A DNA stretch of 32,000 bases from contig NZ_JAYGHR010000068.1 of NCBI RefSeq assembly GCF_034932365.1, positions 179 to 32,178 of the forward strand. Direction: 5' to 3'. The position numbers and the translations under genes are program-made. This DNA comes from Limnoraphis robusta BA-68 BA1. Its GTDB lineage: Bacteria > Cyanobacteriota > Cyanobacteriia > Cyanobacteriales > Microcoleaceae. Shown one piece after another: positions 1-30,400 of the stretch (positions within the stretch are counted from its first letter, which is position 1; every line of letters starts with the position of its first letter). Under the pieces are notes generated by a model. It was not told the DNA's origin. It did no database searches and saw only the letters and a list, made by a program, of their open reading frames with translations.

Positions 1-84
1 ATTTAGAGAGTATCAAGTTTAATTTGTATTTTTAATTGTTTTTAGTTTTAGGTTGTCAACTACCCAGTTTCTTTTTTGCCCAAG

Positions 85-2145: not shown

Positions 2146-3165
<1,020 letters not shown>

Positions 3166-4892: not shown

Positions 4893-4905
4893 TTTTTTCT
4901 CCAGA

Positions 4906-5403: not shown

Positions 5404-5459
5404 TGTTTTTCCCTGATATTAATGCTTGTTTCCGTTAAAAAACTTGAATCACGACTGAA

Positions 5460-7243: not shown

Positions 7244-7325
7244 GCGGACGTGGCGGAATTGGTAGACGCGCTAGATTTAGGTTCTAGTACCGCAAGGTGT
7301 GAAGGTTCAAGTCCTTTCGTCCGCA
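7244..7325 (+). tRNA. tRNA-Leu (anticodon UAG), class II with a long variable arm; CCA not encoded
   Basis: Acceptor stem GCGGACG/CGTCCGC with discriminator A. Anticodon stem CTAGA/TCTAG with loop TTTAGGT (anticodon TAG). Variable arm TACCGCAAGGTGT. T arm GAAGG-TTCAAGT-CCTTT. Confidence 0.9.
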
Positions 7326-10427: not shown

Positions 10428-10925
10428 ATGACTAATCGAAAACCTCAGCTTTTTACGGTTGAACCTCTCAAAGGAGAGAGTCTCAGCCATTTTTTGGGCA
10501 GGTTTCAGAGGGAAAATTATCTCAAGCCTGCTCAACTGGGCAAATTAACGGGATTGGGGGCTACAATCTCCCGGTGGGAAAAACTTTATTTGAACCCTTT
10601 TCCTCAACCTCAAGAATTGGAAGCATTGGCGGCTATTGTTCAAGTTGAAGTTGACAGACTGATGCTGATGCTTCCCCATCGAGGGATGACCTTACAACCC
10701 AGACCGATTTTGTTGTGTGGCGCTTGCTACCAAGAAAACCCCTGTCATCAAATTGTCTGGCAGTCGAAAAATAAGTTTGGGTGCGATCGCCATCAACTGC
10801 GTTTATTATCGAAGTGTACCAACTGTGGAACCCCCTTTTCAATTCCTGCTCAATGGATACAAGGAGAGTGTCCCCACTGTTTCCTACCATTCACAACAAT
10901 GCTAAAATGTCAAAAGCACCTCTAA
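10428..10925 (+). CDS. tniQ: TniQ family target-selection protein (short V-K type)
   Basis: 165 aa. The N-terminus (EPLKGESLSHFLGRFQRENYL) and Cys-rich zinc-finger part (LCGACY, CHQIVWQ, CDRHQLRLLSKCTNCGTPF, CPHC) closely parallel ShCAST TniQ as I recall it. Confidence 0.88.
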   Translation: MTNRKPQLFTVEPLKGESLSHFLGRFQRENYLKPAQLGKLTGLGATISRWEKLYLNPFPQPQELEALAAIVQVEVDRLMLMLPHRGMTLQPRPILLCGACYQENPCHQIVWQSKNKFGCDRHQLRLLSKCTNCGTPFSIPAQWIQGECPHCFLPFTTMLKCQKHL

Positions 10926-11395
10926 ATACGGCTATGGACTCGACTACCGAAACGTTGGAAAACCCATATTCTCAGTTTCAAGCTGCCTGTTCCAAGATTT
11001 ACATCGAATTGGTTGACATGGAGTTGACAGTCCAAGCAATGGTATCAAGGTCTGAGTCCAGCGCACCTGAGTATGAAGTGATCGCACCGTCTGAGGTGTC
11101 CCAAGAAGCTCAAGAAGGGCTAAAACTTTACTACGATAACGGTGGCCAGAAGACCTGGGTTTTATCGGAAGCTTTAGCGAATGGTCAACCGATTACGAAT
11201 CAGCAAATTGACGAGATGGTATCATTTTTTAATGATGCGATCGCCAAAAGAAATCAACCCGAATGGAACGATATTAATGCTCCCTTTCAACCTTTGATTT
11301 GTTGGAAATTGATGGGAGGGGATTTTGGTAATCTTTGGTCAAGAACAACGAAGGAGTTGTATGTGAGTATCAAAAAGCAATTAAGTCAGCAATAG
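10907..11395 (+). CDS. Hypothetical acidic protein, first gene after tniQ
   Basis: ORF 10781..11395. The ATG at 10907 overlaps the tniQ stop (10923-10925) by 19 nt. No motif recognised. Confidence 0.5.
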   Translation: MSKAPLNTAMDSTTETLENPYSQFQAACSKIYIELVDMELTVQAMVSRSESSAPEYEVIAPSEVSQEAQEGLKLYYDNGGQKTWVLSEALANGQPITNQQIDEMVSFFNDAIAKRNQPEWNDINAPFQPLICWKLMGGDFGNLWSRTTKELYVSIKKQLSQQ

Positions 11396-11599: not shown

Positions 11600-11633
11600 G
11601 ACTTCTGACTTCTGACTTCTGATTTCTGACTTC
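11600..11633. repeat. Heptamer tandem array (GACTTCT)n, about 5 units
   Basis: gacttctgacttctgacttctgatttctgacttc lies directly 3' of DGR target 2. It is in inverted orientation relative to the arrays at 12534-12705. Confidence 0.9.
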
Positions 11634-11645: not shown

Positions 11646-12530
11646 TTAAGTCCTGGGGGGGACACATACCACACGAAACCCGATAGTGAAGTTGGCGCTG
11701 GCGGGGTTATTGATCCTGCGGAACGCGGAGCGGCAGCGGCTTGGATTGAGATCCGAGGAGCCGCCACGAAGGACTCTTGTGTTATATGCAATATATGTAG
11801 TTTTTTTATTTTCTGACAACCACGCACGACCATCATCGGGTGCGCCTTCATAATTGTCGTGGAAATTATCTTCGCACCATTCCCAAACGTTGCCGTGCAT
11901 ATCGCACAAGCCAAAGGGATTCGCCACTTGGAAGTAGCCAACCGGAGTAGTTTGTTCTCGATCTTCTCCTTTGGGGCCTCTGCCGTAGGAACCGCTATAG
12001 ACGGTTTTGCCGCCAAATTCTTGATCCGTTCCACAATAGTTGGCCAGATCTGTGGTGATGGTTTCTCCAAAGTGAAAGGGTGTTGTGGTTCCGGCGCGAC
12101 AGGCGTATTCCCACTGGGCTTCGCTGGGCAGGCGGTAATCTCTGCCCGTTTTTTGACTCAATCGGGCGCAAAATTCTTTGGCATCAAACCAGGAGACTTG
12201 CTCAACTGGGCGACTCCAACGGTCGTAATTTTCGTAGGCATCTTTGAAGCGGGAGGGGTCGGGCTTGAGATCCCGTTCAATCTTTTCAGTAGTTTCAACA
12301 ACGGCTTTCCACTGACCCTGGGTGATAGGATAACGCCCCATAAAAAATTCTGAAATGGTAACTTCGTGTTGACGGCCTTCATCTTCGGAGCGTTCCAACT
12401 CATCCTCAGTCGAACCCATGAGAAACCTTCCTGCGGGAATTTTCATCATTGCCAGTTCAACATTATTACCCAACATTTCGACATAAAACTGGGCTTGTCC
12501 CGTTTGCTTGCGAATTGTTATTTTTGCCAT
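11646..12530 (-). CDS. Stand-alone FGE-sulfatase / C-type-lectin-fold protein, DGR target 2
   Basis: ORF 11646..12548, with the ATG at 12528-12530. Motifs: RFLMGS, HEVTISEFFMGRYPITQGQW, RLPSEAQWEYACRAG, HGNVWEWC, and C-terminal RGGS...GFRVVCVPPRT. It is paralogous to the C-terminus of ORF 14749..17682. Confidence 0.85.
   Translation of the reverse strand: MAKITIRKQTGQAQFYVEMLGNNVELAMMKIPAGRFLMGSTEDELERSEDEGRQHEVTISEFFMGRYPITQGQWKAVVETTEKIERDLKPDPSRFKDAYENYDRWSRPVEQVSWFDAKEFCARLSQKTGRDYRLPSEAQWEYACRAGTTTPFHFGETITTDLANYCGTDQEFGGKTVYSGSYGRGPKGEDREQTTPVGYFQVANPFGLCDMHGNVWEWCEDNFHDNYEGAPDDGRAWLSENKKTTYIAYNTRVLRGGSSDLNPSRCRSAFRRINNPASANFTIGFRVVCVPPRT
11649..11768 (-). other. DGR variable region VR2
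   Basis: The last ~40 codons of target 2. It aligns colinearly with 14752-14871, with identical anchors (cacgaaaccc, gcggagcggcag, ggagccgccacg) and clustered substitutions between them. Confidence 0.75.
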
Positions 12531-12533
12531 TTT

Positions 12534-12754
12534 GAAGTCAGAAGTCAATTTTGAAGTCAGAAGTCAGAAGTCAGAAGTCAGAAGTTAAGAGTTAAGCTGT
12601 TACACATCTAAAATTACACGACACCCAACACCCGTTTGAAGTCAGAAGTCAGAAGTCAGAAGTCAGAAGTCAGAAGTCAGAAGTCAGAAGTCAGAAGTCA
12701 GAAGTTAAGAGTTAAGCTGTTACACATCTAAAATTACACGACACCCAACACCCG
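12534..12754. repeat. (AGAAGTC)n heptamer arrays within a 120-bp tandem duplication
   Basis: Heptamer tracts at 12534-12547, 12553-12585 and 12638-12705. The 54-bp unique part gaagttaagagttaagctgttacacatctaaaattacacgacacccaacacccg is identical at 12581-12634 and 12701-12754. The array starts 3 nt upstream of the target-2 ATG. Confidence 0.9.
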
Positions 12755-12814
12755 ACACCGATCTCTACAATGCAGTTTAAATGCACAACAGCTTAGGAGT
12801 CAGAAGTTCTAGAT

Positions 12815-13208
12815 TTATTCTTTGAGTTTTTTGAGAGTTGTCACTAATATTTTAATGATTTCTTCGGTTTCTTGGGTCAGTCCTTTGAACTTTTCTAATG
12901 ATACCAGTTCTGCTTCTACGATAACTTCCAGCCAGAATCGCGTTTCTCTTGCTTCCTTAAGAGCAATTTCATATTTACTAATAAAATCTCTTTTAGATTG
13001 AGCGGACTGAGCTTCACTGCAACTTGTTGATTACTCACACCATCCGCCAACATTAATCTTTCTCCCTAATTCTATCTCATTACTTCTGACTTCTGACTTC
13101 TGACTTCTGACTTCATCTAGATTGTCCTTCTAACCAAGTGCAAGCTTTGACTATTCTAACCGCAAACTTTTTGGTTCTTTCCTGAATAGAAACTTGTTGA
13201 TTACTCAC
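12815..13208 (-). pseudogene. Disrupted four-helix-bundle (Avd-like / 23S rRNA IVS-like) protein gene
   Basis: The minus strand encodes an N-terminal piece from GTG 13208 (MSNQQVSIQERTKKFAVRIVKACTWLEGQSR). The 95-bp repeat copy at 13021-13115 follows. Then comes a C-terminal piece in another frame (SEAQSAQSKRDFISKYEIALKEARETRFWLEVIVEAEL...KKLKE, stop at 12815-12817). About 20 central residues of the family pattern are missing. Confidence 0.6.
13021..13115. repeat. 95-bp direct repeat, copy 2 (contains a GACTTCT heptamer tract)
   Basis: aacttgttgattactcacaccatccgccaacattaatctttctccctaattctatctcattacttctgacttctgacttctgacttctgacttca. It differs from 13191-13285 at 3 of 95 positions. Confidence 0.9.
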
Positions 13209-13285
13209 ACTATCCGCCAACATTAATCTTTTTCCCCAATTCTATCTCATTACTTCTGACTTCTGACTTCTGACTTCTGACTTCA
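13191..13285. repeat. 95-bp direct repeat, copy 1 (forms the 3' end of the RT ORF)
   Basis: Same unit as 13021-13115, offset by 170 bp. It encodes the RT tail [24 protein letters not shown] and contains the RT stop (13210-12). Confidence 0.9.
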
Positions 13286-14313
13286 ATTGAGTTTCGGAGT
13301 TTGTGGGTGTCGCCGTGACGCAGGTGCGCCTCCCAACTTTGCATTCGCTGTTTTAATTTTTCCAGGGTAAGAGAACCCCGTTTGTACTCTTTCTGCATGG
13401 TTTTTAGCCTCAGCCTCCCCCGTCTCAAGTTATCGTTGCGAACCCGAATTTTCTCGGGAAATACTCTAAATCCCACGAAGTTTGCCCCGATGCGCGTTTC
13501 AAACAGTTGGCTTTTTATAGGATGAATTTTCAAGCGCAAACTTGCCAGATTTTCTTCGATTTTTTGTCGGGCTTCTGCTAACATTTCGCGATCGCCTGCA
13601 AAGAGCGCAAAGTCATCAACATACCTCAAATATTTCTGAACGCGCAGTTTTTCTTTTACAAAATGGTCGAAGCTATCGAGGTAGAAATTTGCTAAGAACT
13701 GACTGGTTAAATTTCCGATGGGCAAGCCTTTTCGTCGCACTACCGGAGTTAGCAAATCATCCCCCGGAAAATACTCGATTACGGGGTCTTGGGGGTTGCT
13801 ACCATCAATTATAGTATCGATTAGCCACAGGGTATCTTTACACTTGATTTTGCGCCGGATTTGGGCTTTGAGTATTTCGTGGTCTATGCTGGGAAAGTAT
13901 TTGCGAATGTCGCACTGCAATACATAGCTGCTGGAACGGGCAAATTGGGTGAAGCGTTGCAGCGCTCGGTGGGAACCGTAGCCTACTCGGTTGGCGTAGC
14001 TATCCCGAATAAATGACCGCTCTATCCGGGGGACGATAACGTTGCAGAGGGCGTGGTGAACAACCCGATCTCGGTAGGGTGCGGCCGAAATTAACCGGGG
14101 TTTGGGGTCGTAGATTTCAAAGGTTTTGTAGGCTCCGGGGCGGTAGGTTTTGTCTGTTAATTCGGTTTGGAGTTGAAATAAATTTGGCTCCAGGTTATAG
14201 TTGAATTCCAGTACGTTTTCTCGATATCGTTTGCCTTTTTGGGCGAGACGGGCGGCTAAATTTAAGTTCTCCCAGGCGAGAATTTCTGACCAAAGGTTTC
14301 CGTACCGCTTCAT
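13210..14313 (-). CDS. DGR-type reverse transcriptase
   Basis: 367 aa. RT motifs: [18 protein letters not shown]; [14 protein letters not shown] (the SQ motif I associate with DGR RTs); and the YVDDFALF catalytic box. It lies 9 bp downstream of an Avd-like gene and next to VR-bearing targets. Confidence 0.88.
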
Positions 14314-14322
14314 CCTATCTGT

Positions 14323-14661
14323 TTACCCCCTCTGCTGCTTGATCCATCCGCCTAGATCGTACCCTATTGCGCCGATTTGTTTGTTGATATATTCATAACG
14401 CTGTCCGGAAATGAGTTGAAAATCGTACAGCAAACGGGTTTGATATCGGATTATATCGAGTTGAATGTTAATACTTTCCAGGTGTTCTAATTTTTCTCCC
14501 CTGCTGAACCGGGCGCGAATTAATTTTTCCAGCAATTCATAGAGGTTGTTGATGATGCGATCGCCCAAACTAAATCGGTGATCCCTCGGCAAGCGATTCA
14601 AAATCGGAACGTACCACTTGATTAAATCATAGGTCTTCTGAATAATGGGCAGTTCGTTCAT
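14323..14661 (-). CDS. avd: DGR accessory variability determinant (Avd, four-helix-bundle protein)
   Basis: 112 aa. The N-terminus is IIQKTYDLIKWYVPILNRLPRDHRFSLGDRI. Its position between the VR-bearing target and the RT is the canonical DGR arrangement. Confidence 0.8.
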   Translation of the reverse strand: MNELPIIQKTYDLIKWYVPILNRLPRDHRFSLGDRIINNLYELLEKLIRARFSRGEKLEHLESINIQLDIIRYQTRLLYDFQLISGQRYEYINKQIGAIGYDLGGWIKQQRG

Positions 14662-14748
14662 ATTTTTTAACTTGAACTAAACATCAATATCTCCTCAAAT
14701 TTTCGACTCGCCAAAGGCGAGCATCCCGGAGGGCAAGAGGGCAAAGGG

Positions 14749-17674
<2,926 letters not shown>

Positions 17675-17682
<8 letters not shown>

Positions 17683-18724
17683 CTTCTTCTGTCTGACCTA
17701 AATCTTTAAGAAGTTGTTTGATCAGTCCATCTTTTGTAGATACTCGTCCTTTTGTTACCATAAATAGGGCATTAAGAAGTTGATCGTTTGCCAATGTTTC
17801 TGTTTTCCGATTTTCTATAAATTGGTCAACTAGGGCATCGAGATCTTGATCGGTTAATTTTTCAGAATTTTCTGCAATACCAATCTCCTTCCCTAACTGA
17901 GCCGCAATAATTTTAACTAAATGCGGTTTTTCAGGTTCTTTCATTGTTAAACGCAAACATCGTCTCAAAAACGGTGGCGGAAAATCTCGCTCTCCATTAC
18001 TGGTTAAAAGCACAAAAGGAAAGGCGGTGCAGAATATGCGTCCTTCAGAAATATCTGCACTAATATCGGCAGTGTAAGCCGTGCGGACTGAGGCGGTTTT
18101 TACTTCTTTTTTTATTCTCACAAGTTCGGGAATTTTAAAGCTTCCTTCTTCAAAAATAGTTAAAAGATCGTTGGGGAGATCAATGTCACTTTTATCAATT
18201 TCATCAATCAACAAAACGCGGGGTTTGTCCGAAGGCAGCAAAGCCGTTCCTAAAGGCCCCAAAGTAATATAATTTTCAATACTTCTGAGTTGCTCTTTGA
18301 ATCGTTTTTTTCGTTCATCAGGCGAAAGTTGTGAAAAGTTCGGGGGTTGCTGTTCCTTCTCTTCTTGTAATCGTTGTAGTCTGGCGATCGCATCGTAGTT
18401 GTACAGTCCATCTTTTAGCGTTGTTCGAGTTGTAATCGGCCAATACAAGACTTCTCCTAGTTTTAACTCTTTTGCCACTGCATAAGCTAACGAGGATTTC
18501 CCTGTCCCCGGTCTTCCCGTAACTAATAATGGTCGCCGCAAGTACAAAGCCGCATTCACCATTTGAATTTCTTCCTCTCTGGCTTGGAAGGTTTCTCCTC
18601 TGATTTCGCGCCGACTTTCTCCCGAAGTGATATCTTGACCGAATGGCCGCCAATTCGGAGGCTCTGGTAATTTCCAATTATCGTGAGGTTCGCTATTTCC
18701 GGTAAAAATTTTCCAATCATTCAT
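17675..18724 (-). CDS. MoxR-like AAA+ ATPase
   Basis: 349 aa. Walker A is VTGRPGTGKSSLAYAVA and Walker B is VLLIDEIDKSD. It lies between the VMAP-like and vWA-like genes. Confidence 0.8.
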
Positions 18725-18733
18725 AGCAATTTA

Positions 18734-20089
18734 TCATAACTTGTTTTCAGTCAAAGCTTGTTCTGGTGGTATTATATTGGGGTCATCCCAAAGCAAACAC
18801 AAATGACGACCAATATGATTTTCAGGGGGTTCACAATCCATAGCTTCTACTCTTTTTGATTTTACTTGGTTTGGTAGTGACTGTAGATAGCTATCTTTAA
18901 GAAGTTCATCTAGGACTGTCTGGTTGTTAATCTGAGGGAGTTGTTGTCGAATCCATAAGGCTAAAGGAACTGCTTTTCGCCAAAGTAAAGTTCCCGGCTC
19001 TTTTCCCTGAAAAACTGTTGTTATTTTTATAGCGATCGCTTGTTGATCTTGTGTGACTTTCTTTTGTAAGCTTCTGCAATTTACGCTATCTCCCAAAATA
19101 AAAATTTCCTCGGCAGGTTGAGCTAATTTAGACTTCAAAATCTCTCTTTTTTGATACCACCTAACCCTAGCTGGAGTATTGCCTTTTAATCTTTCTGAAC
19201 ACCGCAACAAAACTTCGTAATCTTCACCAATTGTTGTCATGTAGTCTTCGTCTTCATCCTCTTGCCAACTTTCCCACCAGTCAACCGCATGATTCATCAG
19301 TTTTGCAGGTAAAAAAATATGAATTTGTTCGAGGTCTTTTGAACACTCCTCTAAACTTTGAGAAATTAAATCTTTTAACAGTGCCGGGATATTTTTTAAC
19401 GCTTCATCTGTTTGTATTGTATTATCTTGGTTGTTGAATTTAAGTCGTTTATAATTAGATGAGGATTTTTTAACATTGTAGTTCAACCAGGCTTCAACAC
19501 TATAGCTTCCTTCCAGCTCTTGAATTACAATAAAAAGACCCGGAACATATTCCTCCTCTTGTTGTTGTTCTCGCTTTAATTGTTCAAGTAATTTATTACA
19601 TTCTTCGATATTATTTTCTATCCACCTACTTAAGTCTTGTTTGAGTTTACAATTTATCTTTGGATTTAAAAATAAGTGACCGATAAATTTTTCTATACAA
19701 GTGTAATTTTCTTCCTGGCGAGGCAATTGTAAACTGTTAATCAACTCTTTTAATGATGCAGGTGATTCCGGATCAATTAAATATTTAGGTAAAGATAATC
19801 TATAGGCTTTTTTAATTTGATATTTTTCTTGATCATAGTAAGGTTCGATATTTTTTATGACCTCCTCTATGCTAAAATTTTGACTTTGTTTGTTTAGGTC
19901 TTCAAGCTCTTTCTCTATTCTATTTATATCTTCGCCTAATTCCTCTAATTGAGCTTCGAGACTATTTCTTTCTGCTGGATTCGTTTCTCTCCTATATTTG
20001 CGAGCAACATCTTCATAATCTTGTCTACGAGCTTCTAACTCGGCTTCCAAACTTTTTTTTTGAAGTCTGATATATAATAATTCCTTCAT
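18734..20089 (-). CDS. VMAP-like (vWA-MoxR-associated) protein with an N-terminal coiled-coil adaptor module
   Basis: 451 aa. The N-terminal ~60 aa coiled coil is nearly identical to the CHAT C-terminus. The C-terminal half (IHIFLPAKLMNHAVDWWE, VLLRCSERL, ALWIRQQ) resembles the VMAP-C pattern as I recall it. The call rests mainly on gene context. Confidence 0.5.
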   Translation of the reverse strand: MKELLYIRLQKKSLEAELEARRQDYEDVARKYRRETNPAERNSLEAQLEELGEDINRIEKELEDLNKQSQNFSIEEVIKNIEPYYDQEKYQIKKAYRLSLPKYLIDPESPASLKELINSLQLPRQEENYTCIEKFIGHLFLNPKINCKLKQDLSRWIENNIEECNKLLEQLKREQQQEEEYVPGLFIVIQELEGSYSVEAWLNYNVKKSSSNYKRLKFNNQDNTIQTDEALKNIPALLKDLISQSLEECSKDLEQIHIFLPAKLMNHAVDWWESWQEDEDEDYMTTIGEDYEVLLRCSERLKGNTPARVRWYQKREILKSKLAQPAEEIFILGDSVNCRSLQKKVTQDQQAIAIKITTVFQGKEPGTLLWRKAVPLALWIRQQLPQINNQTVLDELLKDSYLQSLPNQVKSKRVEAMDCEPPENHIGRHLCLLWDDPNIIPPEQALTENKL

Positions 20090-20266
20090 TACATGAACTG
20101 ATTTAACTCTTTTTCAATCCGCTCAAGATCTTCGCCTAATTCCTCTAATTGAGCTTTGAGGCTATTTTTTTCTGCTGGATTTGTTTCTCTCCTATATTTG
20201 CGATTAACACCTTCATAATCTTGTCTACGAGCTTCTAACTCGGCTTCCAAGCTTTCTTTTTGAAGC
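19928..20266. repeat. Two 139-bp direct repeat copies (19928-20066 and 20128-20266), about 93% identical, offset exactly 200 bp
   Basis: atcttcgcctaattcctctaattgagctt...ttgtctacgagcttctaactcggcttccaa occurs in both copies. They encode the VMAP N-terminus and the CHAT C-terminus. Confidence 0.9.
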
Positions 20267-21633
20267 TGCTGCGCCAAAGTTAAGGATTTGGAAAAATTGG
20301 AACTTTTTGGAACCTCAGTCTTTTTTGATCCTTCCTCTTCTGAATGAGCAAAAAGTTGTCCTCCTTCATTATCCTGCCAACGCAAATATAATACCGGACG
20401 ATACCACTGGTTTCCTTCAATTCCGATTGCACTCTGTCCATGTTTTAATGCAACCGCCAACGGTTTTTTTTCTCCAAGAGAGCGGTAAAAATATTCGGAA
20501 AAAGCACAAGCAGCATCTACACGAATAGAATACTGCATGGCGACAACTGCCGGAATACCTTGACCAATCAGATTTTGTGCCACCCCATTGAAAACACTCT
20601 CACTCGAACGAGACATCCCACTTCTGCAAGCACTGAGAACGATCAAAGCTATTCCCGGTTCTGAGTTGGGTTGTTCTCGACGTTGCGAATTTCCTAGCAG
20701 TTCGCCCAGTTCTTTAGCACTTACAAAGTCAGCCGTTCCATCGGTTTGTTCAAAAACCAAATAACCTTGGGGGTGTCCCAAAGCAGCACCGCATTCGCAC
20801 TGAGTTTTATTCTGTTTATAGGCTTTCCTGCACCGAGGTTCGTTACAGCGCTTACCCCAAAAACCGTGACCATCAAAATGCAAGATATGAGGATTTTGTT
20901 GATTTTGGCATTCGAGCAACCGAGTTCGCAGCGTGTTGAGAGTGGGAGGATTTAGAGTTTCTAATTTAACTTTTTCTTGCTCTTGAGCTTTTTGCAATCC
21001 ACGAATAATTGCTTCTTTTTCCCCGGAAGATAAAGGGTTTAGGTTCAGCCTTTCATCCCCAGCACCCGACGAAATTAACAATATATTTGGTCGTTCAACG
21101 GGGGGTAAGTTGGGGCGAGGACTGCCATAGGCAATATAGCGGGAAAAAGTTGTTCCTTGATGTGCTAAAAAGCCATAATCATTGTGAAGTAACTCCCAAG
21201 GATAATCGGTTAACGGAAGATATTTAGGGCCATCTTCGGGAAAATTAAACTGAATATGCAGCCAAGTATTACTGCGTTTAGCTTCTGCGACTGCGGTTTC
21301 CATGCGGTTCTGAATCTTTTGACCCAGTTTTTCGTAAAGTCTACGTCCTATCACCTCCAGATAGTTGGGCTTAAAATTGGTTTTATCTTTGAGTAAAAGC
21401 TTCTCATTGATTAACCAATTTTGCTCGGATTCATCAAAATTATCCGGTTTAAAATCGGTCAATTCTAATATCTTAGTAATTGTGAAACGCCTGTCTTTAA
21501 TTTCCGAGCTTTCATTCTCAAAAAAAGGTAGAGATGGTTCGTAATGAGCTTCCCCGGATGAACCTTCTACAGTAACTTTGAAACGGTGTGGGTTTCCTTC
21601 AATTGGATAGAACCTCACTTGCAGCAGCTTCAT
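20089..21633 (-). CDS. CHAT-domain (caspase-like) protease with a C-terminal coiled-coil adaptor module
   Basis: 514 aa. Catalytic dyad context: ILHFDGHGFWG (His) and ALIVLSACRSGM (Cys). The stop overlaps the VMAP start by 1 nt (TAATG). Confidence 0.8.
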   Translation of the reverse strand: MKLLQVRFYPIEGNPHRFKVTVEGSSGEAHYEPSLPFFENESSEIKDRRFTITKILELTDFKPDNFDESEQNWLINEKLLLKDKTNFKPNYLEVIGRRLYEKLGQKIQNRMETAVAEAKRSNTWLHIQFNFPEDGPKYLPLTDYPWELLHNDYGFLAHQGTTFSRYIAYGSPRPNLPPVERPNILLISSGAGDERLNLNPLSSGEKEAIIRGLQKAQEQEKVKLETLNPPTLNTLRTRLLECQNQQNPHILHFDGHGFWGKRCNEPRCRKAYKQNKTQCECGAALGHPQGYLVFEQTDGTADFVSAKELGELLGNSQRREQPNSEPGIALIVLSACRSGMSRSSESVFNGVAQNLIGQGIPAVVAMQYSIRVDAACAFSEYFYRSLGEKKPLAVALKHGQSAIGIEGNQWYRPVLYLRWQDNEGGQLFAHSEEEGSKKTEVPKSSNFSKSLTLAQQLQKESLEAELEARRQDYEGVNRKYRRETNPAEKNSLKAQLEELGEDLERIEKELNQFM

Positions 21634-21648
21634 TTATCTGTTCCCCAA

Positions 21649-22068
21649 TTACTCACCCAGGTCTTCGTTCAGGTTACTGTCATCATCCCCTTTGAGAAGA
21701 CCTCCAACAGCATTTTCTGCGATCGCTCGTCTTTGATCCGGATGCAAAGCTTCGTACCACTTAATCAGACGTTCCTTATCAAAAAGTGGAGATAACTTCA
21801 CTTTCACTTTCTGAATTTTTTCTTGACTGACATCGCCACCACCTTCACCACCAATTTCCCCTCCAGTTCCCCAAACATTAATTTTGATACTTCCCTTACC
21901 GCTCCCTTTACCCGTTCGTTTGGCTGTAACTTGTAATTCCAGTTCCACGGACTCAACAAATAGAAAAGGAGCATCTTTATCCTTTCCAGGCGTTACCGAA
22001 AGTAGGTCTTCCTTCACCTGTTGAATAAATTCAGCCAGTTCTATTGAGTCTTTCTCATCTTTGGACAT
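21649..22068 (-). CDS. Trypco2-family protein (protease-co-occurring domain)
   Basis: 139 aa. The pattern IELAEFIQQVKEDL...FLFVESVELELQVTAKRTGKGSGKGSIKINVWG...KVKVKLSP matches the Trypco2 family as I recall it. It is the first gene of the operon, 15 bp upstream of the CHAT gene. Confidence 0.6.
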   Translation of the reverse strand: MSKDEKDSIELAEFIQQVKEDLLSVTPGKDKDAPFLFVESVELELQVTAKRTGKGSGKGSIKINVWGTGGEIGGEGGGDVSQEKIQKVKVKLSPLFDKERLIKWYEALHPDQRRAIAENAVGGLLKGDDDSNLNEDLGE

Positions 22069-22535: not shown

Positions 22536-23813
22536 TTAGGTTTTCATCACTTTATTAACTGAGTAAATAGCCGTTGATAAAATTTCAGCAGCTTGTTCAA
22601 TTTCCTCGTCGGTCGTCAACTTACCAATTCCCATTCTTAACGCGCCCTCTACCAACTCAGAAGGTAAGCCCAAAGCTTGCAGGACATGGGAAGGTGCCTC
22701 TACACCCGACGAACAAGCAGCACCCCTAGAAATGGCTAATTTTGAACGCACTCTGGCAATAATGGCACTGTTAGGAATGCTGGGGACTGAGATGTGGAGG
22801 TTTCCCGCCAAACGGCAGTCCGTATCTCCATTGATAACTAGATTTGGAATAGCATCGGACAAAAGCTTTTGGAGTCGATCTCGCTTGGCTGCTATCGCCA
22901 ATTCATCTTGTTCCATCTCCAGCTTTCGCAACCGACACGCTTCTCCGAGTGCAACGATTCCCGGCACGTTGAGAGTTCCCGATCGCATTCCTTTCTGATG
23001 TCCGCCCCCGTAGAGAATGGGTTTTAGGCTATGTCCTTTCTGCACCACCAACGCCCCCACACCTTTTGGCCCGTAGAGTTTATGAGCGGAAATCGCAAGA
23101 TAGGTAATTCCCCACTCTGCAAAATTAATCGGAATTTTACCAACAGCTTGGGAAGCATCGCAAAGGAACGGAATGTTATATTTTTGGGCAATCTGGCCAA
23201 TTTGTTGAATTGGATAAATATTACCAATTTCATTATTAGCTGCCATAACGCAGAGTAGAGAAAGACCGCCAGCGCAAATTTTATCTAAATATTCGAGGTC
23301 AATTTTTCCTTTAGAATCAACTAGAATGGAAATCACTTCTGCAAGCCCTTTTTTGGCAATTTCTTCGCAGGTATCTAAAACAGCTTGATGTTCAACAGTT
23401 GTTATAGCGATTCGAGGTAATGTTTGAGATTTTCTATTAATTAATTTATCAATAATCCAGTTGAGGATTCTTTTGAATATAGATTTTTTAGCTAATATTT
23501 TATTTTTGCGCTCATTTCTTTGCTGATTATTCCGATCAAGGCTGCCGAAAATAGCAAGATTAATACTCTCCGTTGCTCCTGATGTCCAAACAATCTCTTT
23601 GGGGGAAGCTCCAATTAAATCTGCAACATGAATTGCAGCCTGATTAACGGCTTTTTCAGCTTCATCTCCATATTCGTGATCGATACTGCTGGCATTTCCA
23701 AATGCTGTGGTCATATAGTAAAGCATTCGTTCCGCCACTCTTGGATCAATTGGAGTGGTTGAATGGTAGTCTAAATATATTACGTTGTTATTTTTATTAC
23801 TACTCATACACAA
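22536..23813 (-). CDS. Class V aminotransferase-fold cysteine desulfurase (NifS/IscS/DndA-like)
   Basis: 425 aa. Motifs: SGATESINLAI; the PLP-lysine motif ISAHKLYGPKGVGAL; and the catalytic Cys loop SRGAACSSG. The start lies 2 nt after the BrxL-like stop. Confidence 0.85.
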   Translation of the reverse strand: MCMSSNKNNNVIYLDYHSTTPIDPRVAERMLYYMTTAFGNASSIDHEYGDEAEKAVNQAAIHVADLIGASPKEIVWTSGATESINLAIFGSLDRNNQQRNERKNKILAKKSIFKRILNWIIDKLINRKSQTLPRIAITTVEHQAVLDTCEEIAKKGLAEVISILVDSKGKIDLEYLDKICAGGLSLLCVMAANNEIGNIYPIQQIGQIAQKYNIPFLCDASQAVGKIPINFAEWGITYLAISAHKLYGPKGVGALVVQKGHSLKPILYGGGHQKGMRSGTLNVPGIVALGEACRLRKLEMEQDELAIAAKRDRLQKLLSDAIPNLVINGDTDCRLAGNLHISVPSIPNSAIIARVRSKLAISRGAACSSGVEAPSHVLQALGLPSELVEGALRMGIGKLTTDEEIEQAAEILSTAIYSVNKVMKT

Positions 23814-23815
23814 AA

Positions 23816-25264
23816 CTATTTAGCTTCTACATGAATATCTCGACCAAACTGTCTAAACTCATCGTCTAGATAATATAATGAGTTGCGAATTCCTTGGCGC
23901 AACTTTTGAGCAGGTTCTAAGCAGTCTCGCTGGTAATCCGTCAAGGTTAAATCAAGGTGAGGATAAAGAAGTTTAAGAAAACCGGCCGATGATTTTAAAA
24001 TTGAATTTTGATCGCGCACTGAAACATTTTCAAAATGTGTGTGTTCTTGAACATAAGAGAAAAAACTATGTTCATAGCGTAAAGAAAGTAAGACTTCTCC
24101 AAAAAAGTCCATCTTTAATCCTACTTGTGTTGCAGCCATTTCTCTGCGGAATTTAGGAATTTCCCAACCGGGGATAATACCAGCAAAACGATCTAAAAAT
24201 GCAGTTTCTGAAAAGAATATAGGTAAATTCTTAATAAGATTTTCCTGATGTCGTGGTTTTAAATATTCATCGAGTTCAATATTGGCAAGCATTACAAGAG
24301 AGCAGTCACTAGAAATATCTGCGAAGCCAGAACGGTTATATCGACCATTAGCGAGATAAGTTTTTAAAACACCAATGACTTCATCAGGATTGTCAAAAGT
24401 GAGACTTTGAACTTCGTCTAAAACCAAGACATCATTCCGCCCCAGCAGCCCAATTTCCTTCGTTTTTCCATTGACAAATAATTGGGCGGGGGTAACTTTT
24501 CCTCCACCAATAACTGTGACTTTACTGCTGATATTTTCAAAGACAAAACTTTTACCTGTACCTTTAGGGGCAAGTTCTATAATATGAAAATTGGGTTCGA
24601 CTAAAGGTAAAAGACGAGCTAAAATCCAAGTTTTTGCTTCGCTAGTGTATTTAGAATGTTCGGGATTAAATCCCATCGAACAAAACAGTAAATCCTTCCA
24701 TTGTTCCGTATTAAATTGCCTTCTACATTCTGCATAAGCTTGTAAATTAACTTCAGAATACTGAAAAGGTTCAAAATCGAGAATTTCTACTGTTCCATCG
24801 GGTTGTAAGCCGAGTAAAATTTTTCCCCATAAACCGTGACGGAGTAGCTTTCTATGCTGGTTGATTAAATGAGTTGAGATTGAACAATTATTTAAGTTAA
24901 GAATTGGAACTCTAGCAAAAGGTTCAGGTATAGTTTTTGAATTTTGTTCTAGAATAACCCGAGCTTGCATCAAAGCAATTAACTTTACAGTTTCTCCTTG
25001 AGATAGATTAAACTGAATTTCATTGCGATCATCTTTACGAGGAAAAGCTTTTTTAACAAATGTACTAACTTTATCTAATTCTGCTTGAGTGAGATTACCT
25101 GTACCTGGAACAATTTTATCCAATAGCCATTCTGCTACAAAACTAGGAACACCAACGGCTGTGAGTCCGCTAGAAGGAAGTCGGGCTTTATCAATACAAA
25201 GTGTTCCAAAAGTTTGGCGAACTAATTCATTTTGATAACCCGTTAAATTAGAGGAATTCATCAA
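23816..25264 (-). CDS. BrxL-like AAA ATPase lacking the Lon-protease domain (TIGR02688-like)
   Basis: 482 aa. The N-terminus (VPSFVAEWLLDKIV...KVSTFVKKAFPRKDD) parallels the BrxL N-terminus as I recall it. Walker A is LAPKGTGKSFV and Walker B is VLVLDEVQS. It overlaps the PglZ stop by 17 nt. Confidence 0.6.
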   Translation of the reverse strand: MMNSSNLTGYQNELVRQTFGTLCIDKARLPSSGLTAVGVPSFVAEWLLDKIVPGTGNLTQAELDKVSTFVKKAFPRKDDRNEIQFNLSQGETVKLIALMQARVILEQNSKTIPEPFARVPILNLNNCSISTHLINQHRKLLRHGLWGKILLGLQPDGTVEILDFEPFQYSEVNLQAYAECRRQFNTEQWKDLLFCSMGFNPEHSKYTSEAKTWILARLLPLVEPNFHIIELAPKGTGKSFVFENISSKVTVIGGGKVTPAQLFVNGKTKEIGLLGRNDVLVLDEVQSLTFDNPDEVIGVLKTYLANGRYNRSGFADISSDCSLVMLANIELDEYLKPRHQENLIKNLPIFFSETAFLDRFAGIIPGWEIPKFRREMAATQVGLKMDFFGEVLLSLRYEHSFFSYVQEHTHFENVSVRDQNSILKSSAGFLKLLYPHLDLTLTDYQRDCLEPAQKLRQGIRNSLYYLDDEFRQFGRDIHVEAK

Positions 25265-27470
25265 TATCTAGTCCACTACTAAAAATTTGTTTAACAATAA
25301 GGCTTGATTCTAATATGTTCGCTTTATCAGTTTCAGCATTGGTGTATTCAAACGTAAGGTAGCCAGAAAGTTTAATACTTTGTTCATTGACTTGGGAAGG
25401 CAATTCTGGAAAAGCTGGAATTGGAAGGTTGAGAACTTGTTTTTCATTTGCTGAAATAGTATGGAGCAAAGGGTATCCCTTTTGAAAAGTAGGTAGTTCT
25501 TCAATATAAAGCCATAAGTTTGTTATGGAAATTGAGTTAGGGTTGTCTATCGTAACTTTAATTTGTCCAGGTTCTCTGGGTTTCCCTTCTCCCCAACAAG
25601 AAACAAAAATAGGAAGTCGCTGAGTACATTGACGCAATACTGAAAAACCAACGATAACTTCTTCTGGAAATAAACCACCATGAGAGCCTATGACTTGTTT
25701 TTCTTTAGTGTAGCTGAAAGCGTTGACTGTAGCCGAACTGCGAACAATGCTAATGTCATGGGGAAGATCATAGCGATCGCAGTCTAATACAACAAATCGA
25801 GAATCATCAGTTTTACCGATTCCCATTCTACCCTTTGCTTGCAGTTCTGATGGACAAGCAGACAGAAAGTTAGATAAGCCCAAGATTTGACCGTGATCGC
25901 TAGCGATCACAACAGTTAGGTTCTCAGGTTGAGGATGTTGTTTAATACAGTGATGAATTTCACGAGCAATTTGTTCTAAAATTGAAGGACGCTTTACTTG
26001 ATAAAAGTTAAGCCAATCAACACGATCATGATATAATTCATCAAGCTTGGTAGTATCCCAACAATAAAGTAAATGTTTGTTTGCTTTTAGATCTTGATAT
26101 AGACTGTCCATTTGTGTATCCGTGTACCGTTTTCCCTTCCCTAATTTTTCAAATACTTTACTGCAATTATTTGTCCAATCTAGCGATTTTGGTGTTTTTT
26201 GAGCATAAAGTCCCCATTTTGCGTATTCAGTTTTTGTAGGTAAAAGACTAAACCGAGGTTGAATTTCGGTTTCAAGGTTTAATCCATAAGAATCTTTCAA
26301 GTAAGATAATAAATCCAGGTGATCTAGCCATCCTAAACCATCTATAACAACCCAAAAAACTGGATTTTTATTGCATAAGTTTAGAGTATGCTCGGTAACG
26401 TTATAGTTGAGCAAAGAACTATTTACAGGAGCAACTTTTAACTGAGGATAATATTCCAATAACCATTCAATAAAACTATCAGCAAGATAATCACTAAATT
26501 TTTCCGATGTTGATACTTGCTGTAGCATAATCTCCCAACGTCGAAACGGTAAATATTTTTGCGTTACCCAATTAAGCGTTTGCTCGGGTGTTGCAGATAA
26601 AGGTAAAGGCTCGGGTTTAAGTGGTGGCTGACAATTATGAAGATGTTGTTTTTGCTCTTGATTAAGATAGTTTGCTAGTCGCTTTTCTCTATTGTTGATA
26701 ATCCATTTTTGCCGATTAGAAAGAACTTGATAAGCTACATTAGCAACCCGTTTCATATCAGCTTGTTTTGAAGGAATAAGCTCGTCAAGAATTTTGCACT
26801 CAGTTTTATAAAGTTGCTCTTGCCAATAACGCTCAAATTCTACAGACAACCAATTTGGAACAGGATTAGGAAAAACATCAATTTCGTGAACTTGAGGCTC
26901 TGCAATTCCTAACCATTGCCTTAGTAACTGAACTTTATTATCAGTTTGGTAATAGGAAGAAAGATTTGAATTTTTGCGTTGATGTTGCCAAACTTTTTCT
27001 AATGGTTGATACTCAGCACTAACTTGAATACTTAACCAAGCTGCAAGGTTTTCTTCAGAAGGTTCCTTTTGCCAAAGGTCGTTTTGAGTTTGTTCTGTTA
27101 AGTAATCTGCAATGGCAGTTTTTCTGGGATAGCGGCTTAATTGAGTAGCAAGGTTGAGTCGCTGTTCATTTGTCCAGTAATCAGGAATAGGTACAGAACC
27201 AAAAATAGATTCTAGCTCAATGCAAGGATCTTTTTTGATCTCTAGGATCGCATCAGTTTTATTCCATACCCGCAGCCATTCTTGAGACCAATCACAAAGT
27301 TGCTTTGCATTAGATCCTTTTCCTGTTACCCAGTAGCGCCCTGGCAAAACAAAAAATGACTTTATCCATTCAACTTCAGTTTTTATTACCGTGTAACCCT
27401 GGGGAATATCATACAGTCCAGTGGGATCTAATACAACTGTGAAGTCACTAGAAGCAAGATAATTAATCAT
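25248..27470 (-). CDS. pglZ: PglZ-domain (alkaline-phosphatase superfamily) protein
   Basis: 740 aa. Motifs: VFWVVIDGLGWLDHL, TVVIASDHGQILG, GSHGGLFPEEVIVGF. The ATGATTAA overlap (8 nt) joins it to the upstream giant gene. Confidence 0.8.
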   Translation of the reverse strand: MINYLASSDFTVVLDPTGLYDIPQGYTVIKTEVEWIKSFFVLPGRYWVTGKGSNAKQLCDWSQEWLRVWNKTDAILEIKKDPCIELESIFGSVPIPDYWTNEQRLNLATQLSRYPRKTAIADYLTEQTQNDLWQKEPSEENLAAWLSIQVSAEYQPLEKVWQHQRKNSNLSSYYQTDNKVQLLRQWLGIAEPQVHEIDVFPNPVPNWLSVEFERYWQEQLYKTECKILDELIPSKQADMKRVANVAYQVLSNRQKWIINNREKRLANYLNQEQKQHLHNCQPPLKPEPLPLSATPEQTLNWVTQKYLPFRRWEIMLQQVSTSEKFSDYLADSFIEWLLEYYPQLKVAPVNSSLLNYNVTEHTLNLCNKNPVFWVVIDGLGWLDHLDLLSYLKDSYGLNLETEIQPRFSLLPTKTEYAKWGLYAQKTPKSLDWTNNCSKVFEKLGKGKRYTDTQMDSLYQDLKANKHLLYCWDTTKLDELYHDRVDWLNFYQVKRPSILEQIAREIHHCIKQHPQPENLTVVIASDHGQILGLSNFLSACPSELQAKGRMGIGKTDDSRFVVLDCDRYDLPHDISIVRSSATVNAFSYTKEKQVIGSHGGLFPEEVIVGFSVLRQCTQRLPIFVSCWGEGKPREPGQIKVTIDNPNSISITNLWLYIEELPTFQKGYPLLHTISANEKQVLNLPIPAFPELPSQVNEQSIKLSGYLTFEYTNAETDKANILESSLIVKQIFSSGLDIDEFL

Positions 27471-30400
27471 TAGTCTCCTCTAATTTAATATTTAACAATT
27501 GGGTAAGTTTTTCATAAATACTTTGACGTTGAAGCAGAGGAAGTTGGCAAAACATTGTAATAATTTTATTCGCCTGGTCTTTATTCTGCTCTTCTTGACA
27601 TTGGCGTTTTATTAAGTTTAATGATTCTTGATTGGCAGAGTTTAAAAATTCTATATATTGAGAAGTTTCATTTTGAATTTTAGCTAATAACTGATTTGCA
27701 ACTTGCAGTTTTTCTGTATCATCAAGTAACGGATATAGTTTTGTTACTTCTTGCTGCAAACCTTCTAGCCAAACAAAAGCTTGAGATTGTTGGTGTTCTC
27801 GAAGAGTATTTTGGGTGCTTTCAATCTCCTGATAAAAAGTATCAAATAACTCTTCGGTTATTGGGGTGAGAGCATCGGACGTTCGCTTCCAACCGATCAA
27901 CTTGTCTAAACATTCCTGGCAAGATTTAATGGTAGAGTGAGAAATAGAAGAAGTAATCTGTAGAATGTCAATTGCTTGTCGAATGTTATTTTTAAGTGTT
28001 TTATAGCGTTCTTCTTGTACTGAACCTAAGTACAAAGATGAAATTTCTAGAACCTCTTCTAGAAGCTGTTGGGCTGTCGCAATATTGCTTAAAGATTGCA
28101 GTCTGTTTTCAAACTCTGCTAAATTTAGAGTTAAACTTCTTATTTTTTTCCGGATATTTTCTTTTGTAGTTATAATTCGGGATTTTATTTTATCCTCCAA
28201 TTCTTTATTTTCTACACTGTTAAAACTCTCAATATCAGCCAATAACTTGGTTAATTCAGCAAGCCTTGTTACCCGATTTGCTTCAGAATCCCAGCGTTCA
28301 ATTTGCTCAATTATTGATCTTCTAGAAGCAAACTTTTTCTCTGTCTTCTGATAATTATCGTATTCATTAGATTGCTGAAAAATTATATCAAGCTTGATAT
28401 AATTCTCTTCTAATTTCTTAAACTCTTTTAAACTATCAATTTTTTCAAGGTAATTACTTTGAGCTTCAAGATTGGCTTTATGATTGAGAATTGTTTGTTT
28501 TAATTTTTGAATATGATTCTCAATTTCTACTTCATGGTCTTGAATATAGAACAGTTCACTTTTCAATTTTTCTATTTGTTTGATTCTTTCTTCGCATTGA
28601 AAAACGTTCAAATTATTGTCAAATTTAAACTGACGAATGCTTTGAAGTATTTTTAAATCATTATCTTTTATCTTCAACTGTTCTTGTTCTTCTGTTAAGT
28701 CTTTATAATCAACTTCTAGGTTCTCAATAGCTTGATTAATATCAGTCTGAATTTCTTGAAAATCTTCTGATTTTTGTAAAATTTTTGTGATTTCATTTAA
28801 ACGATTTTTAAGCTTTTCATATTCATCTAGACGAGGGAGTTTATTACTTATGCTATTCTTAATTTTTTCCAAAAATGTTATTTTACTTTGAGACTTAATA
28901 TCTTCAAGTTGTTTTTGGTACTGTTCTAGAGAACTTACCTCCAAGTGACTGGTTTGTAAACTACTTAAGGTGATTTCTTGATACACAGAGAAAGCTTCCG
29001 ATATCTTTGAGAAGGGTAAATCACGAATTCGTTGAAGCTTATCTTGAACTTTAGAAAGTTCTGAACGCAGTATTTTCTCTGCATCGCTTTGCTGTTGAAT
29101 TACGGACAACTCTTCTGTTAGTTGAGTTTGAAGATATTGAATTCGAGAACTACTTTCTGGTTCAGTAAATCGATTAGCTTGACTTTCAATTTTTCTAATT
29201 AATTCTACAATTTCACTGGGGGAGGTCACAACAGCTAACTGTTCTTGCCAAGCATCTAGCTGTTCATTTAATTCTTGATACTTAATATTTATCTCCTTGA
29301 TAATTTGCTGAATTTCAATTAGAGAAATGGTTTGAGGAAGAGAAATCATTATTAACTCAATTTCTGATTGAGCCTCAGTAAAATCATGCTGAGTTGAATT
29401 TTGATTTAAGTTTTGATAAAGTTCCTGAATTTTTTTAAGAGATTCATCAGTTTGAGCTTTTTCTTGAAGTTTAAGTTTGGAGTTTTCAGACCTATTCTTA
29501 GCAGATTGTAAGGTTTCAATCAAGTGTTCTGGAAGTCCAGAAACTTCACTAATTTTTTGTATATATTCTTCTGCTTTATTTATACATATATCACATTCTT
29601 CAATCGTATTTAGAGATTCTGAACCTTCTCTAAAATCTGATACTAGCTTGCTAATTTTGTCGAATAACGCTTGTTTTGCTTGCGTATAGCGATTTTGCTG
29701 TTCTTGGGTCGGTTGAACTGAGATTCCATCGGAGGAGGTTTGAACACTTGGAGAAAAGGGAAGGAATTTAGGATATAACTTCAGTAAACTGTTCAGATCT
29801 GTTGACTTAGATAAGTCTTCTACTTCTACTATGACAGCAAACCCATCATCAATTTCCTTCACTTTATTAGTGATTTGTTCTTGCTGTTGACGAAGTTTTG
29901 AAGTTTCTGTTTGATCGGCTTCACCAGAATTAAGAAACTCAGTTATAGCTTGTAAATGCTGTTGCGCTTTGTTGTAATCTATCAATGAATCAAGAAGTTC
30001 GGGAACTGTTAATCGTTCACGACGGATCAATTTTGCTCGATGAGTGACAATCCATTTTTCAACGAAGTCTTTAGGTTTTTTAAAAATGTCAGTATTAGCC
30101 CAATCTTGTAAAGGAAGAGTTAGTATAGAAACTGGACTTCCCTTTTTGACTAATACTGTACTTGCCCCTTTCAAAACTATCTCTTTACGATGGTAAGCCA
30201 TCCATGAAACTATCAAAACAGTGAACACATAATCATTACAACCAAAAGGCGGTTCGGATAAAGCTTTCCAAACTTTTTCAAGCTCAATAATTTTTTCATT
30301 CTTATCCTTCAATTCAGTTAATTCAGAAATTTTATCCCAAGCTGCTCGGACGTGTTCTTCGGTGGGAGGTTGAACAACATATTTCTGAGAGGATTTTTGA

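Follow-up and report, generated by a model that had tools for sequence, protein, structure and literature searches.

The closest described relatives of the locus reported here are the 'ternary' conflict systems of multicellular bacteria, predicted computationally, in which a vWA protein, a MoxR ATPase and a VMAP protein are encoded together (Kaur, Burroughs, Iyer and Aravind; Kaur 2020, eLife 9:e52696; PMC7159879). About 80% of the cyanobacterial VMAP ternary systems are linked to a diversity-generating retroelement (DGR), the vWA protein being fused to an FGS domain (Kaur 2020), and most of the clade 5E cyanobacterial DGRs have been assigned to putative antigen sensors (Doré 2024, PNAS 121:e2316469121; PMC10907252). 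The present analysis concerns a gene cluster of Limnoraphis robusta BA-68 BA1 within a stretch of 32,000 nucleotides (nt) of contig NZ_JAYGHR010000068.1 (positions 179 to 32,178), the whole of which is called the window below. A preliminary description of the window had read the cluster as a seven-gene operon joining a DGR to a ternary system and a CHAT protease. Its fit to the systems of Kaur 2020 is borne out, the vWA-like, MoxR and VMAP parts and their synteny being found here, but the link between a DGR and a ternary system is already in Kaur 2020 and the sensor model was proposed by Doré 2024. The locus thus belongs to a known, computationally defined class and has two local peculiarities, a missing template repeat (TR) and a position behind a transposition module resembling that of a CRISPR-associated transposon (CAST). 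Probably it is one of the DGR-associated ternary conflict systems of the VMAP type, with vWA and MoxR components; it would act by the mechanism set out below, and its DGR would have lost its template.

Organisation and conservation of the locus

The listing of open reading frames (ORFs) reproduces exactly the seven minus-strand genes, their span of 13210-22068 and all of the junctions first described (Table 1). From trypco2 to the reverse transcriptase (RT) gene the junctions are +15, -1, +9, -8, +87 and +9 nt; the start of the VMAP gene shares one base with the stop codon of the CHAT gene and the MoxR ORF overlaps the vWA-like gene by 8 nt. The class-V aminotransferase gene upstream is 467 nt away from the first gene. 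A scan of the interior of the cluster, which in a cyanobacterium is weak evidence, gave promoter-like matches (21 versus 17.5±3.7) and terminator-like matches (13 versus 13.9±3.8) at the level of shuffled sequence, hence no signal above background for separate promoters or terminators splitting the cluster. The gene order and all seven protein assignments are backed by Pfam, NCBIfam or structure searches, the vWA domain more weakly than the rest. The extent of the operon has to be amended: the seven genes are as described but the unit in fact runs on downstream to a second target, at 11646-12548, which consists of the CLec domain only.

Table 1. Positions of the features of the locus, in window coordinates.
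Feature	Position	Strand	Length	Remark
Trypco2-domain protein	21649-22068	minus	139 aa	first gene of cluster
TCAD3-CHAT-EAD9 caspase-like peptidase	20089-21633	minus	514 aa	predicted effector or signalling protease
VMAP protein, EAD9 - VMAP-M1 - VMAP-C	18734-20089	minus	451 aa	
MoxR-class AAA+ ATPase	17675-18724	minus	349 aa	
vWA-like (SAV_2336 N-terminal) - helical linker - FGE-sulfatase/CLec protein	14749-17682	minus	977 aa	predicted sensor and DGR target
DGR accessory protein Avd	14323-14661	minus	112 aa	
DGR-type reverse transcriptase	13210-14313	minus	367 aa	native C-terminus replaced from about residue 344
Second, stand-alone FGE-sulfatase/CLec target	11646-12548	minus	300 aa	VR2-like 3' end
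EAD9 module pair (VMAP N-terminus, CHAT C-terminus)	19907-20265	minus		direct repeat
VR1-like segment, 3' end of sensor gene	14750-14872	minus		putative former DGR variable repeat; aligns to relatives' TRs
VR2-like segment, 3' end of second target	11647-11768	minus		aligns to relatives' TRs
Rearranged spacer between RT and second target	12549-13285			slot of relatives' TR; heptamer tracts, duplications, broken ORF
tRNA-Leu	7244-7325			

Conservation was examined in 80 cyanobacterial loci, which came from a scan of one genome per species with an alignment of the vWA-like domain and in which neighbours were counted by tblastn with the window proteins. In 68 of the 80 the vWA gene is immediately preceded by VMAP and MoxR genes whose order and strand are those of the window, and at least 12 of these 68 syntenic loci have a MoxR ORF that extends 8 nt beyond the first vWA residue matched. 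The genes therefore do co-occur in other genomes, as had been supposed, and the assignment stands; the arrangement is not a matter of chance. Avd and RT are found downstream of the vWA gene in 15 of the 61 loci with enough flank, and Trypco2 and CHAT upstream of it in 5 of the 55 with enough flank (7 loci in all). The complete seven-gene order is present in two loci, both from Stenomitos frigidus (L057 and L066), each with a TR and a second target. The 977-residue and MoxR proteins are identical to entries of L. robusta strain Tam1. The only other database record of the locus is 100% identical to the window and so yields no comparison of variable repeats (VRs) between strains.

A second VMAP ternary system was observed in a metagenome-assembled genome of L. 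robusta (L081, 6691-13940). Its effectors differ from those of the window: it comprises Trypco1, a trypsin-VMAP protein, MoxR, a vWA-FGE protein and a short FGE target. Of a DGR it has an Avd remnant only, with neither RT nor TR, and its two CLec targets have VRs 77-81% identical to those of the window.

Adaptor, peptidase and VMAP proteins

The first gene product matches Trypco2 (Pfam PF19631) with E 3.5e-18 and 66 bits against a cut-off of 24, and a homologue of it is encoded directly upstream of CHAT in L051, L056, L057, L058, L064, L066 and L075. The CHAT protein consists of TCAD3 (1.1e-19, residues 2-41), CHAT (PF12770, 1.3e-25, residues 96-403) and EAD9 (1.9e-14, residues 454-513) domains in Pfam. 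Its catalytic dyad is formed by H256 in the sequence FDGHGF and C336 in VLSAC, both invariant across seven orthologues. The VMAP protein starts with its own EAD9 domain (1.1e-12, residues 8-65), followed by VMAP-M1 (PF19963, 3.2e-20) and VMAP-C (PF20028, 7e-31), the last scoring 108 bits against a cut-off of 27.

The EAD9 modules of the CHAT and VMAP proteins form a direct repeat of 159 nt with 89% identical DNA (about 90% over about 150 nt). The earlier proposal that the caspase-like effector has a matched adaptor is thereby confirmed at the level of domains, EAD9 being present on both proteins. Such near-identity fits the idea of a homotypic adaptor, and it suggests that the pair arose by a recent duplication or by gene conversion.

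MoxR ATPase and sensor protein

The ATPase belongs to Pfam AAA_5 (PF07728; 35.7 bits against a cut-off of 22) and carries the NCBI name 'MoxR family ATPase'. A sequence profile of this protein gave matches to PDB sequences at the level of the P-loop only, so that a comparison of structures was needed for the MoxR assignment. An AlphaFold2 (AF2) model, run with database homologues (pLDDT 72), was compared with the PDB using Foldseek. The 13 best matches were all NorQ or CbbQ MoxR ATPases, with E values from 7e-9 to 1.3e-7 and target-normalised TM values of 0.60-0.67.

The N-terminus of the 977-residue protein matches NCBIfam NF041121 SAV_2336_NTERM (1.8e-141, residues 30-497), a model whose name states no fold, and its C-terminus matches Pfam FGE-sulfatase (4e-54, residues 716-971). 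The best of the weak Foldseek matches of its N-terminal region are mostly to MIDAS/vWA proteins (MDN1, NorD in the NorQD complex, integrin I and CMG2) mixed with HPRT, and after the first strand there is a conserved E180-x-S182-x-S184, the position at which a MIDAS is expected. On the modelled fold this region is likely to be a vWA domain, which falls short of a demonstration. Low-complexity linkers are found at residues 45-120 (S/P/Q-rich) and 560-610, and homologues of the vWA-like protein bear alternative C-terminal domains, namely GUN4, WD40 and Ppx-GppA. The second target is also an FGE-sulfatase protein (Pfam, 1.3e-52), has no vWA domain and has a nucleotide sequence 72-76% identical to that of the sensor gene's 3' part.

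Proposed mechanism

The following steps have been inferred from the protein families together with Kaur 2020 and Doré 2024. The cytoplasmic CLec domain would bind a molecule of the invader, and the vWA domain would couple this binding to a MoxR hexamer, as NorD is coupled to NorQ. The MoxR-vWA pair would then drive ATP-dependent remodelling through the VMAP protein, whose N-terminal EAD9 would recruit the CHAT protease via the near-identical EAD9 at the C-terminus of the latter. The active Cys/His protease, with Trypco2 as its partner, would cleave its targets and so make the infected cell of the filament stop growing or die.

The original wiring of Kaur 2020 has the events in another order: the VMAP protein senses the invader, MoxR activates the EAD9-recruited peptidase, and the peptidase cleaves the vWA protein and so frees its CLec domain, a hypervariable, non-enzymatic effector that would bind invader molecules and block them. 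For the present locus this is possible though rather unlikely. In its favour, Doré 2024 summarises the model of Kaur 2020 in this form, the long low-complexity linkers of the vWA protein could be the cleavage sites, and Kaur 2020 puts EAD9 among the adaptors for 'signaling' peptidases and not for terminal effectors. Against it stands the second CLec target of the window, which is a stand-alone protein with no vWA domain to be freed from. To our knowledge, every DGR target characterised so far (Mtd, TvpA) uses its diversified lectin fold, which binds ligands, as a receptor, and this also counts against release of the domain as an effector. Doré 2024 argues for a role as sensor; the sequence itself does not discriminate between the two orders of events.

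The missing template repeat

The Avd protein matches NCBIfam NF033474 DivGenRetAVD over its full length (5.4e-39, 133 bits against a cut-off of 80) as well as Pfam bAvd (2.8e-21). The RT matches Pfam RVT_1 (1.3e-19), possesses the DGR motif IGNLTSQ and the catalytic YVDD, and over residues 1-343 is 64-78% identical to the RTs of relatives in which TR/VR pairs have been verified. All of the relatives with Avd and RT (16/16) carry a TR 50-320 nt after the RT and then the short CLec-only second target, and in these 16 the mismatches between TR and VR are almost all at adenines of the TR. An nhmmer profile made from the TRs of these 16 relatives was run on 73 related RT loci, taken from genomes and metagenomes; in 62 of them it located a TR no more than 700 nt beyond the RT, the median distance being 68 nt.

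No TR was found on either strand of the 32 kb window by an ungapped adenine-tolerant scan, by blastn with a word size of 7 or by an adenine-tolerant Smith-Waterman alignment, all of which returned only the VR1 and VR2 segments. The TRs of the 16 relatives match the window at 14750-14872 and 11647-11768 only, and so does the nhmmer profile. The motif conserved after the TR in the relatives was not found in the window, and the spacers of the relatives showed no similarity to window 12400-13400. The preliminary description had proposed the CLec domain as the object of hypermutation by the DGR. This is not supported for the locus as it stands, as the TR is absent from the window though relatives carry one directly after the RT, and the C-terminus of the RT has been replaced. 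What was said of VR1 holds in part: the segment does align to the TRs of relatives, but, with no TR in the window, it is not verifiable as a strict variable repeat.

Other candidates for a template were tried and rejected. If one VR served as the TR of the other, 23 of the 33 mismatches would lie at positions where the supposed template has no adenine. The gaps between avd and RT (9 nt) and between target and avd (87 nt) are too short to hold a TR and gave no match. A possible remnant of a TR at 12613-12626 and 12733-12746 (GGGTGTCGTGTAAT, 3 mismatches to the VR core) was judged a chance match within a duplicated unit, with no extended similarity. A scan of metagenomes with the RT revealed no relative closer than 77%, so that the ancestral TR of this lineage is not reconstructible; its loci went into the TR base rate given above.

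The slot of the relatives' TR is occupied by rearranged DNA. The homology of the RT to its relatives ends at residue 343, which corresponds to coordinate 13285 and is the exact start of a repeat. The last 9-24 residues of the relatives' RTs, with the motif F..LVFTR, are replaced in the window by a tail encoded by heptamer repeats, about 10 native C-terminal residues having been replaced. The spacer contains tracts of the heptamer (GAAGTCA)n in both orientations. An 82-nt duplication (12553-12634 and 12673-12754, 120 nt apart) is 100% identical and a 95-nt duplication (13021-13115 and 13191-13285) is 97% identical. One copy of the 95-nt repeat cuts a broken ORF at 12815-13209 on the minus strand, which lies in the relatives' TR slot and encodes a four-helix bundle similar to the 23S rRNA intervening-sequence protein and of a fold related to Avd; it appears as a gene call in L083 with a weak 23S_rRNA_IVP match. 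The heptamer tracts, which are of the short tandemly repeated repetitive (STRR) type of cyanobacteria, were seen at 11600-11633 (just after VR2), 12550-12710, 13073-13115 and 13243-13285.

On the simplest reading of the sequence, a rearrangement took away the TR together with the extreme 3' end of the RT gene and the element that follows the TR. The loss of the template was probably mediated by the heptamer and duplicated repeats.

Among the metagenome RT loci about five (L088, L128, L148, L152 and L156) were likewise without a match to the TR profile after the RT, and three loci (L111, L115 and L124) had a match on the opposite strand. Loss or relocation of the TR may be recurrent in this clade of DGRs.

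Past mutagenesis and present state of the retroelement

VR1 and VR2 differ from one another at 20 of the 30 columns which are A in the TRs of relatives, versus 5 of the 71 other columns (Fisher p 1.3e-9), and it is codon positions 1 and 2 that the TR-adenine columns occupy. The pattern of the VRs outside the adenines reads CGTGGCGGCTCCTGG...CTGCCGCTCCGCG...GGGTTTCGTGTGGT, where N stands for the 30 TR-adenine columns. Indirectly, the two segments carry the signature of past adenine mutagenesis, which is historical and no proof of current activity; ongoing hypermutation from this locus is unsupported. The DGR would formerly have rewritten the last 120 nt or so of both CLec genes, and the TR and the conserved element after it would have been lost through a rearrangement at the 3' end of the RT gene tied to the tracts of heptamer repeats. 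With the TR and this element lost, both receptors have most likely become 'frozen' at the specificities that they now have, barring the supply of a template from another part of the genome.

Such a supply would mean that the DGR is still active, with a TR elsewhere in the genome and RT and Avd acting in trans on VR1 and VR2, and possibly also on the targets of the second VMAP locus. We regard this as unlikely. Avd is of full length, the RT keeps IGNLTSQ, YVDD and residues 1-343, and the VRs have kept in common a 3' end rich in G/C (GTCCCCCCCAGGAC), each with a short hairpin close behind it; these hairpins are, however, no more stable than those of shuffled sequence (z about -0.5) and carry no weight as evidence. 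The two CLec targets of the L081 locus, having VRs akin to those of the window in a locus with neither RT nor TR, keep a template acting in trans possible. The RNA of a DGR is as a rule produced in cis with the operon of the RT, as in the system of the Bordetella phage, and this counts against a remote template. So do the presence of the TR directly after the RT in the 62 of 73 loci of this RT clade mentioned above and the loss, in the window, of the native RT C-terminus and of the conserved element after the TR.

Transposon module and defence genes

A left end like that of Tn7 begins about 120 nt after the tRNA-Leu gene and has four direct repeats, CAAATTANNTTTCG, resembling TnsB sites (7464, 7577, 7607 and 7664). 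It is followed by tnsB (602 aa), tnsC (277 aa) and tniQ (165 aa); tnsA was not found in the window. TnsB has rve and Mu-transposase C-terminal domains, and both TnsC and TniQ match their ShCAST counterparts over the full length (ShTnsC, E 1e-53; ShTniQ, E 4e-60). The operon, together with an island of BrxL/PglZ/SspC-like genes, is situated on the cargo side of the left end. Searches with Rfam, a gene and Pfam list, a PDB sequence search and a scan for inverted TnsB-site motifs found no cas12k, tracrRNA, CRISPR array or right end in window 10926-32000 and the next 10 kb of the contig. None of the 80 related loci (0/80) has Tn7-like genes within 10 kb.

The description of the operon as apparent cargo of a CAST-like transposon is therefore half sustained. 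The left end and the ShCAST-like tnsB, tnsC and tniQ beside tRNA-Leu are there, but cas12k and a right end were not found within about 34 kb and cargo status is unproven for this reason. It is plausible that the operon is such cargo. A bolder reading is that an RNA-guided, type V-K CAST-like transposon inserted at tRNA-Leu carries more than 24 kb of cargo as one block, consisting of the complete VMAP system with its DGR and a BREX/Ssp-like island, while RT and Avd use a remote template and serve four CLec receptors in two ternary systems of one genome. This would be a doubtful proposition, decidedly unlikely in our estimate.

Several neighbouring genes may be recorded here. An ORF at 10781-11395 on the plus strand (162-204 aa) overlaps the 3' end of tniQ, has no Pfam match and is a called gene in the public record (L083, 9267-9755). 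The defence island upstream of the operon occupies window 22536-32000 and the next part of the contig. In it the class-V aminotransferase gene, the product of which is possibly a cysteine desulfurase like SspA/DndA, is 2 nt after a gene for a short BrxL (482 aa). Next come PglZ (740 aa) and a protein of 1810 aa with weak SspC/BrxC similarity, the gene of which is cut by the end of the window. The contig continues with genes of the HTH-HNH and LAGLIDADG kinds and with a second SspC-like gene (L084, 1-10008). In its composition the island is a mixture of parts like those of BREX and of Ssp systems. On the chromosomal side of the tRNA gene are a response-regulator-GGDEF-EAL protein (76-1875, plus strand, 599 aa) and redox genes (2146-6482), all of which look like ordinary flanking genes.

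Weighing of the evidence

The reading of the locus as a VMAP-type ternary system with a lost template has a number of points against it. The literature searched contains no expression, cleavage, phage-challenge or VR-sequencing data for any VMAP system, in agreement with the earlier statement that these systems have no experimental characterisation, so that every mechanistic step has had to be inferred. No Pfam vWA domain was found in the 977-residue protein even at E ≤ 1, and the AF2 model of its residues 110-600 (pLDDT 73) gave no Foldseek match at E ≤ 1e-3. In contrast to the pairings given in Kaur 2020, Trypco2 is found here with CHAT and in the absence of a hydrolase, and at least seven other loci keep this pairing. 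Avd and nearly the whole of the RT are intact, which is unexpected for a DGR long dead and leaves room for a template elsewhere; TRs can indeed lie elsewhere in a genome (Kaur 2020, PMC7159879). Finally, an error of assembly may have dropped the TR from the repeat-rich spacer, and the two identical records may share reads.

The locus could also serve no conflict with invaders at all and be a module for signal transduction or developmental cell death in a filamentous cyanobacterium, its CHAT protein acting like HetF or the orthocaspases. Regulatory roles for the targets of cyanobacterial DGRs have been argued by Vallota-Eastman et al. 2020, and the CHAT domain has a weak match to a HetF model. 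Models for the components specific to VMAP systems (Trypco2, VMAP and the vWA protein) are absent from PADLOC 2.0, and the locus therefore does not count as an established defence system. The context is that of a defence island, with PglZ, BrxL and SspC/BrxC-like genes immediately upstream and the Tn7-like module downstream, and sporadic phyletic spread, swapping of effectors between loci and hypervariation of the receptor are hallmarks of conflict systems (Kaur 2020). A purely regulatory or developmental role is accordingly very unlikely.

That short reads collapsed or mis-joined the spacer at its repeats, the TR thus being missing by artefact, is hardly probable: the long heptamer tracts and the 100%-identical 82-nt and 97%-identical 95-nt duplications are typical of sequence that is mis-assembled, but two database records, contigs of 121,528 and 115,499 nt, have the same sequence, the RT ORF reads unbroken into the repeat, the second target starts after the repeats without a break in frame, and the slot is filled by a broken four-helix-bundle gene unrelated to DGR spacers.

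If the ternary-system reading is right, the locus is one of the VMAP systems with DGR-diversified lectin sensors that are predicted to provide anticipatory immunity in multicellular bacteria. It is a compact and fully annotated example in which the adaptor and the catalytic residues are intact, and the orthologue in Stenomitos frigidus, which bears a TR, is available for comparison. It could be used to reconstitute the MoxR/vWA/VMAP complex, the EAD9-EAD9 pairing and the activation of CHAT. As the template is missing the locus has less value for the study of hypermutation; its interest would lie instead in a naturally occurring 'frozen receptor' state and a dated breakpoint, with which the decay of DGRs could be studied. 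Should the whole block turn out to be CAST cargo, it would reveal the way in which these systems spread; on the bolder reading given above, hypervariable-receptor immunity would be moved horizontally between cyanobacteria by a CAST.

Comparison with known systems

The type V-K ShCAST shares with the window tnsB, tnsC and tniQ in the absence of tnsA and a left end at a tRNA gene, and differs from it in the cas12k, tracrRNA, CRISPR array and right end for which the window and the next 10 kb gave no match.

Trichodesmium erythraeum IMS101 (L025) has the same order of VMAP, MoxR, vWA-FGE, Avd, RT and second FGE target, with RT and Avd 75% and 71% identical, respectively, to those of the window. 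Unlike in the window, its RT is followed at 150 nt by a TR, and 14/15 and 18/19 of its VR mismatches are at TR adenines; no Trypco2 or CHAT homologues were detected upstream there.

With the clade 5E DGRs of Doré 2024 the locus has in common its two targets, one long with a vWA N-terminal extension and one short with CLec only, the MoxR, adaptor (Trypco) and peptidase genes alongside, and the model leading from sensor to MoxR to effector. The layout target-avd-RT-TR-target 2, seen in 16 relatives, is that of the window minus the TR. The loci of Doré 2024 are active or intact with matched TR and VR, whereas here the TR is absent and the C-terminus of the RT is modified.

In the systems of Kaur 2020, Trypco1/2 is found with trypsin-like peptidases and the caspase-like domains always with a gene for an alpha/beta-hydrolase, unlike the Trypco2-CHAT pairing of the window; combinations similar to this pairing without the hydrolase are mentioned by Doré 2024 (PMC10907252). 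Their TRs are confirmed, whereas none lies in the 32 kb here. In the remaining respects the two are alike, both having MoxR, a vWA or, here, vWA-like protein fused to FGS/CLec, VMAP-M and VMAP-C, a matched EAD on a stand-alone peptidase and adjacent RT and Avd genes, in a filamentous cyanobacterium.

The more distant NorQ-NorD and CbbQ-CbbO systems insert metals or remodel nitric-oxide reductase or Rubisco and are without a VMAP protein, peptidase, lectin domain or retroelement. They nevertheless resemble the locus in that a MoxR ATPase goes with a vWA partner whose gene comes next and overlaps its own, and they supplied the best matches to the model of its ATPase.

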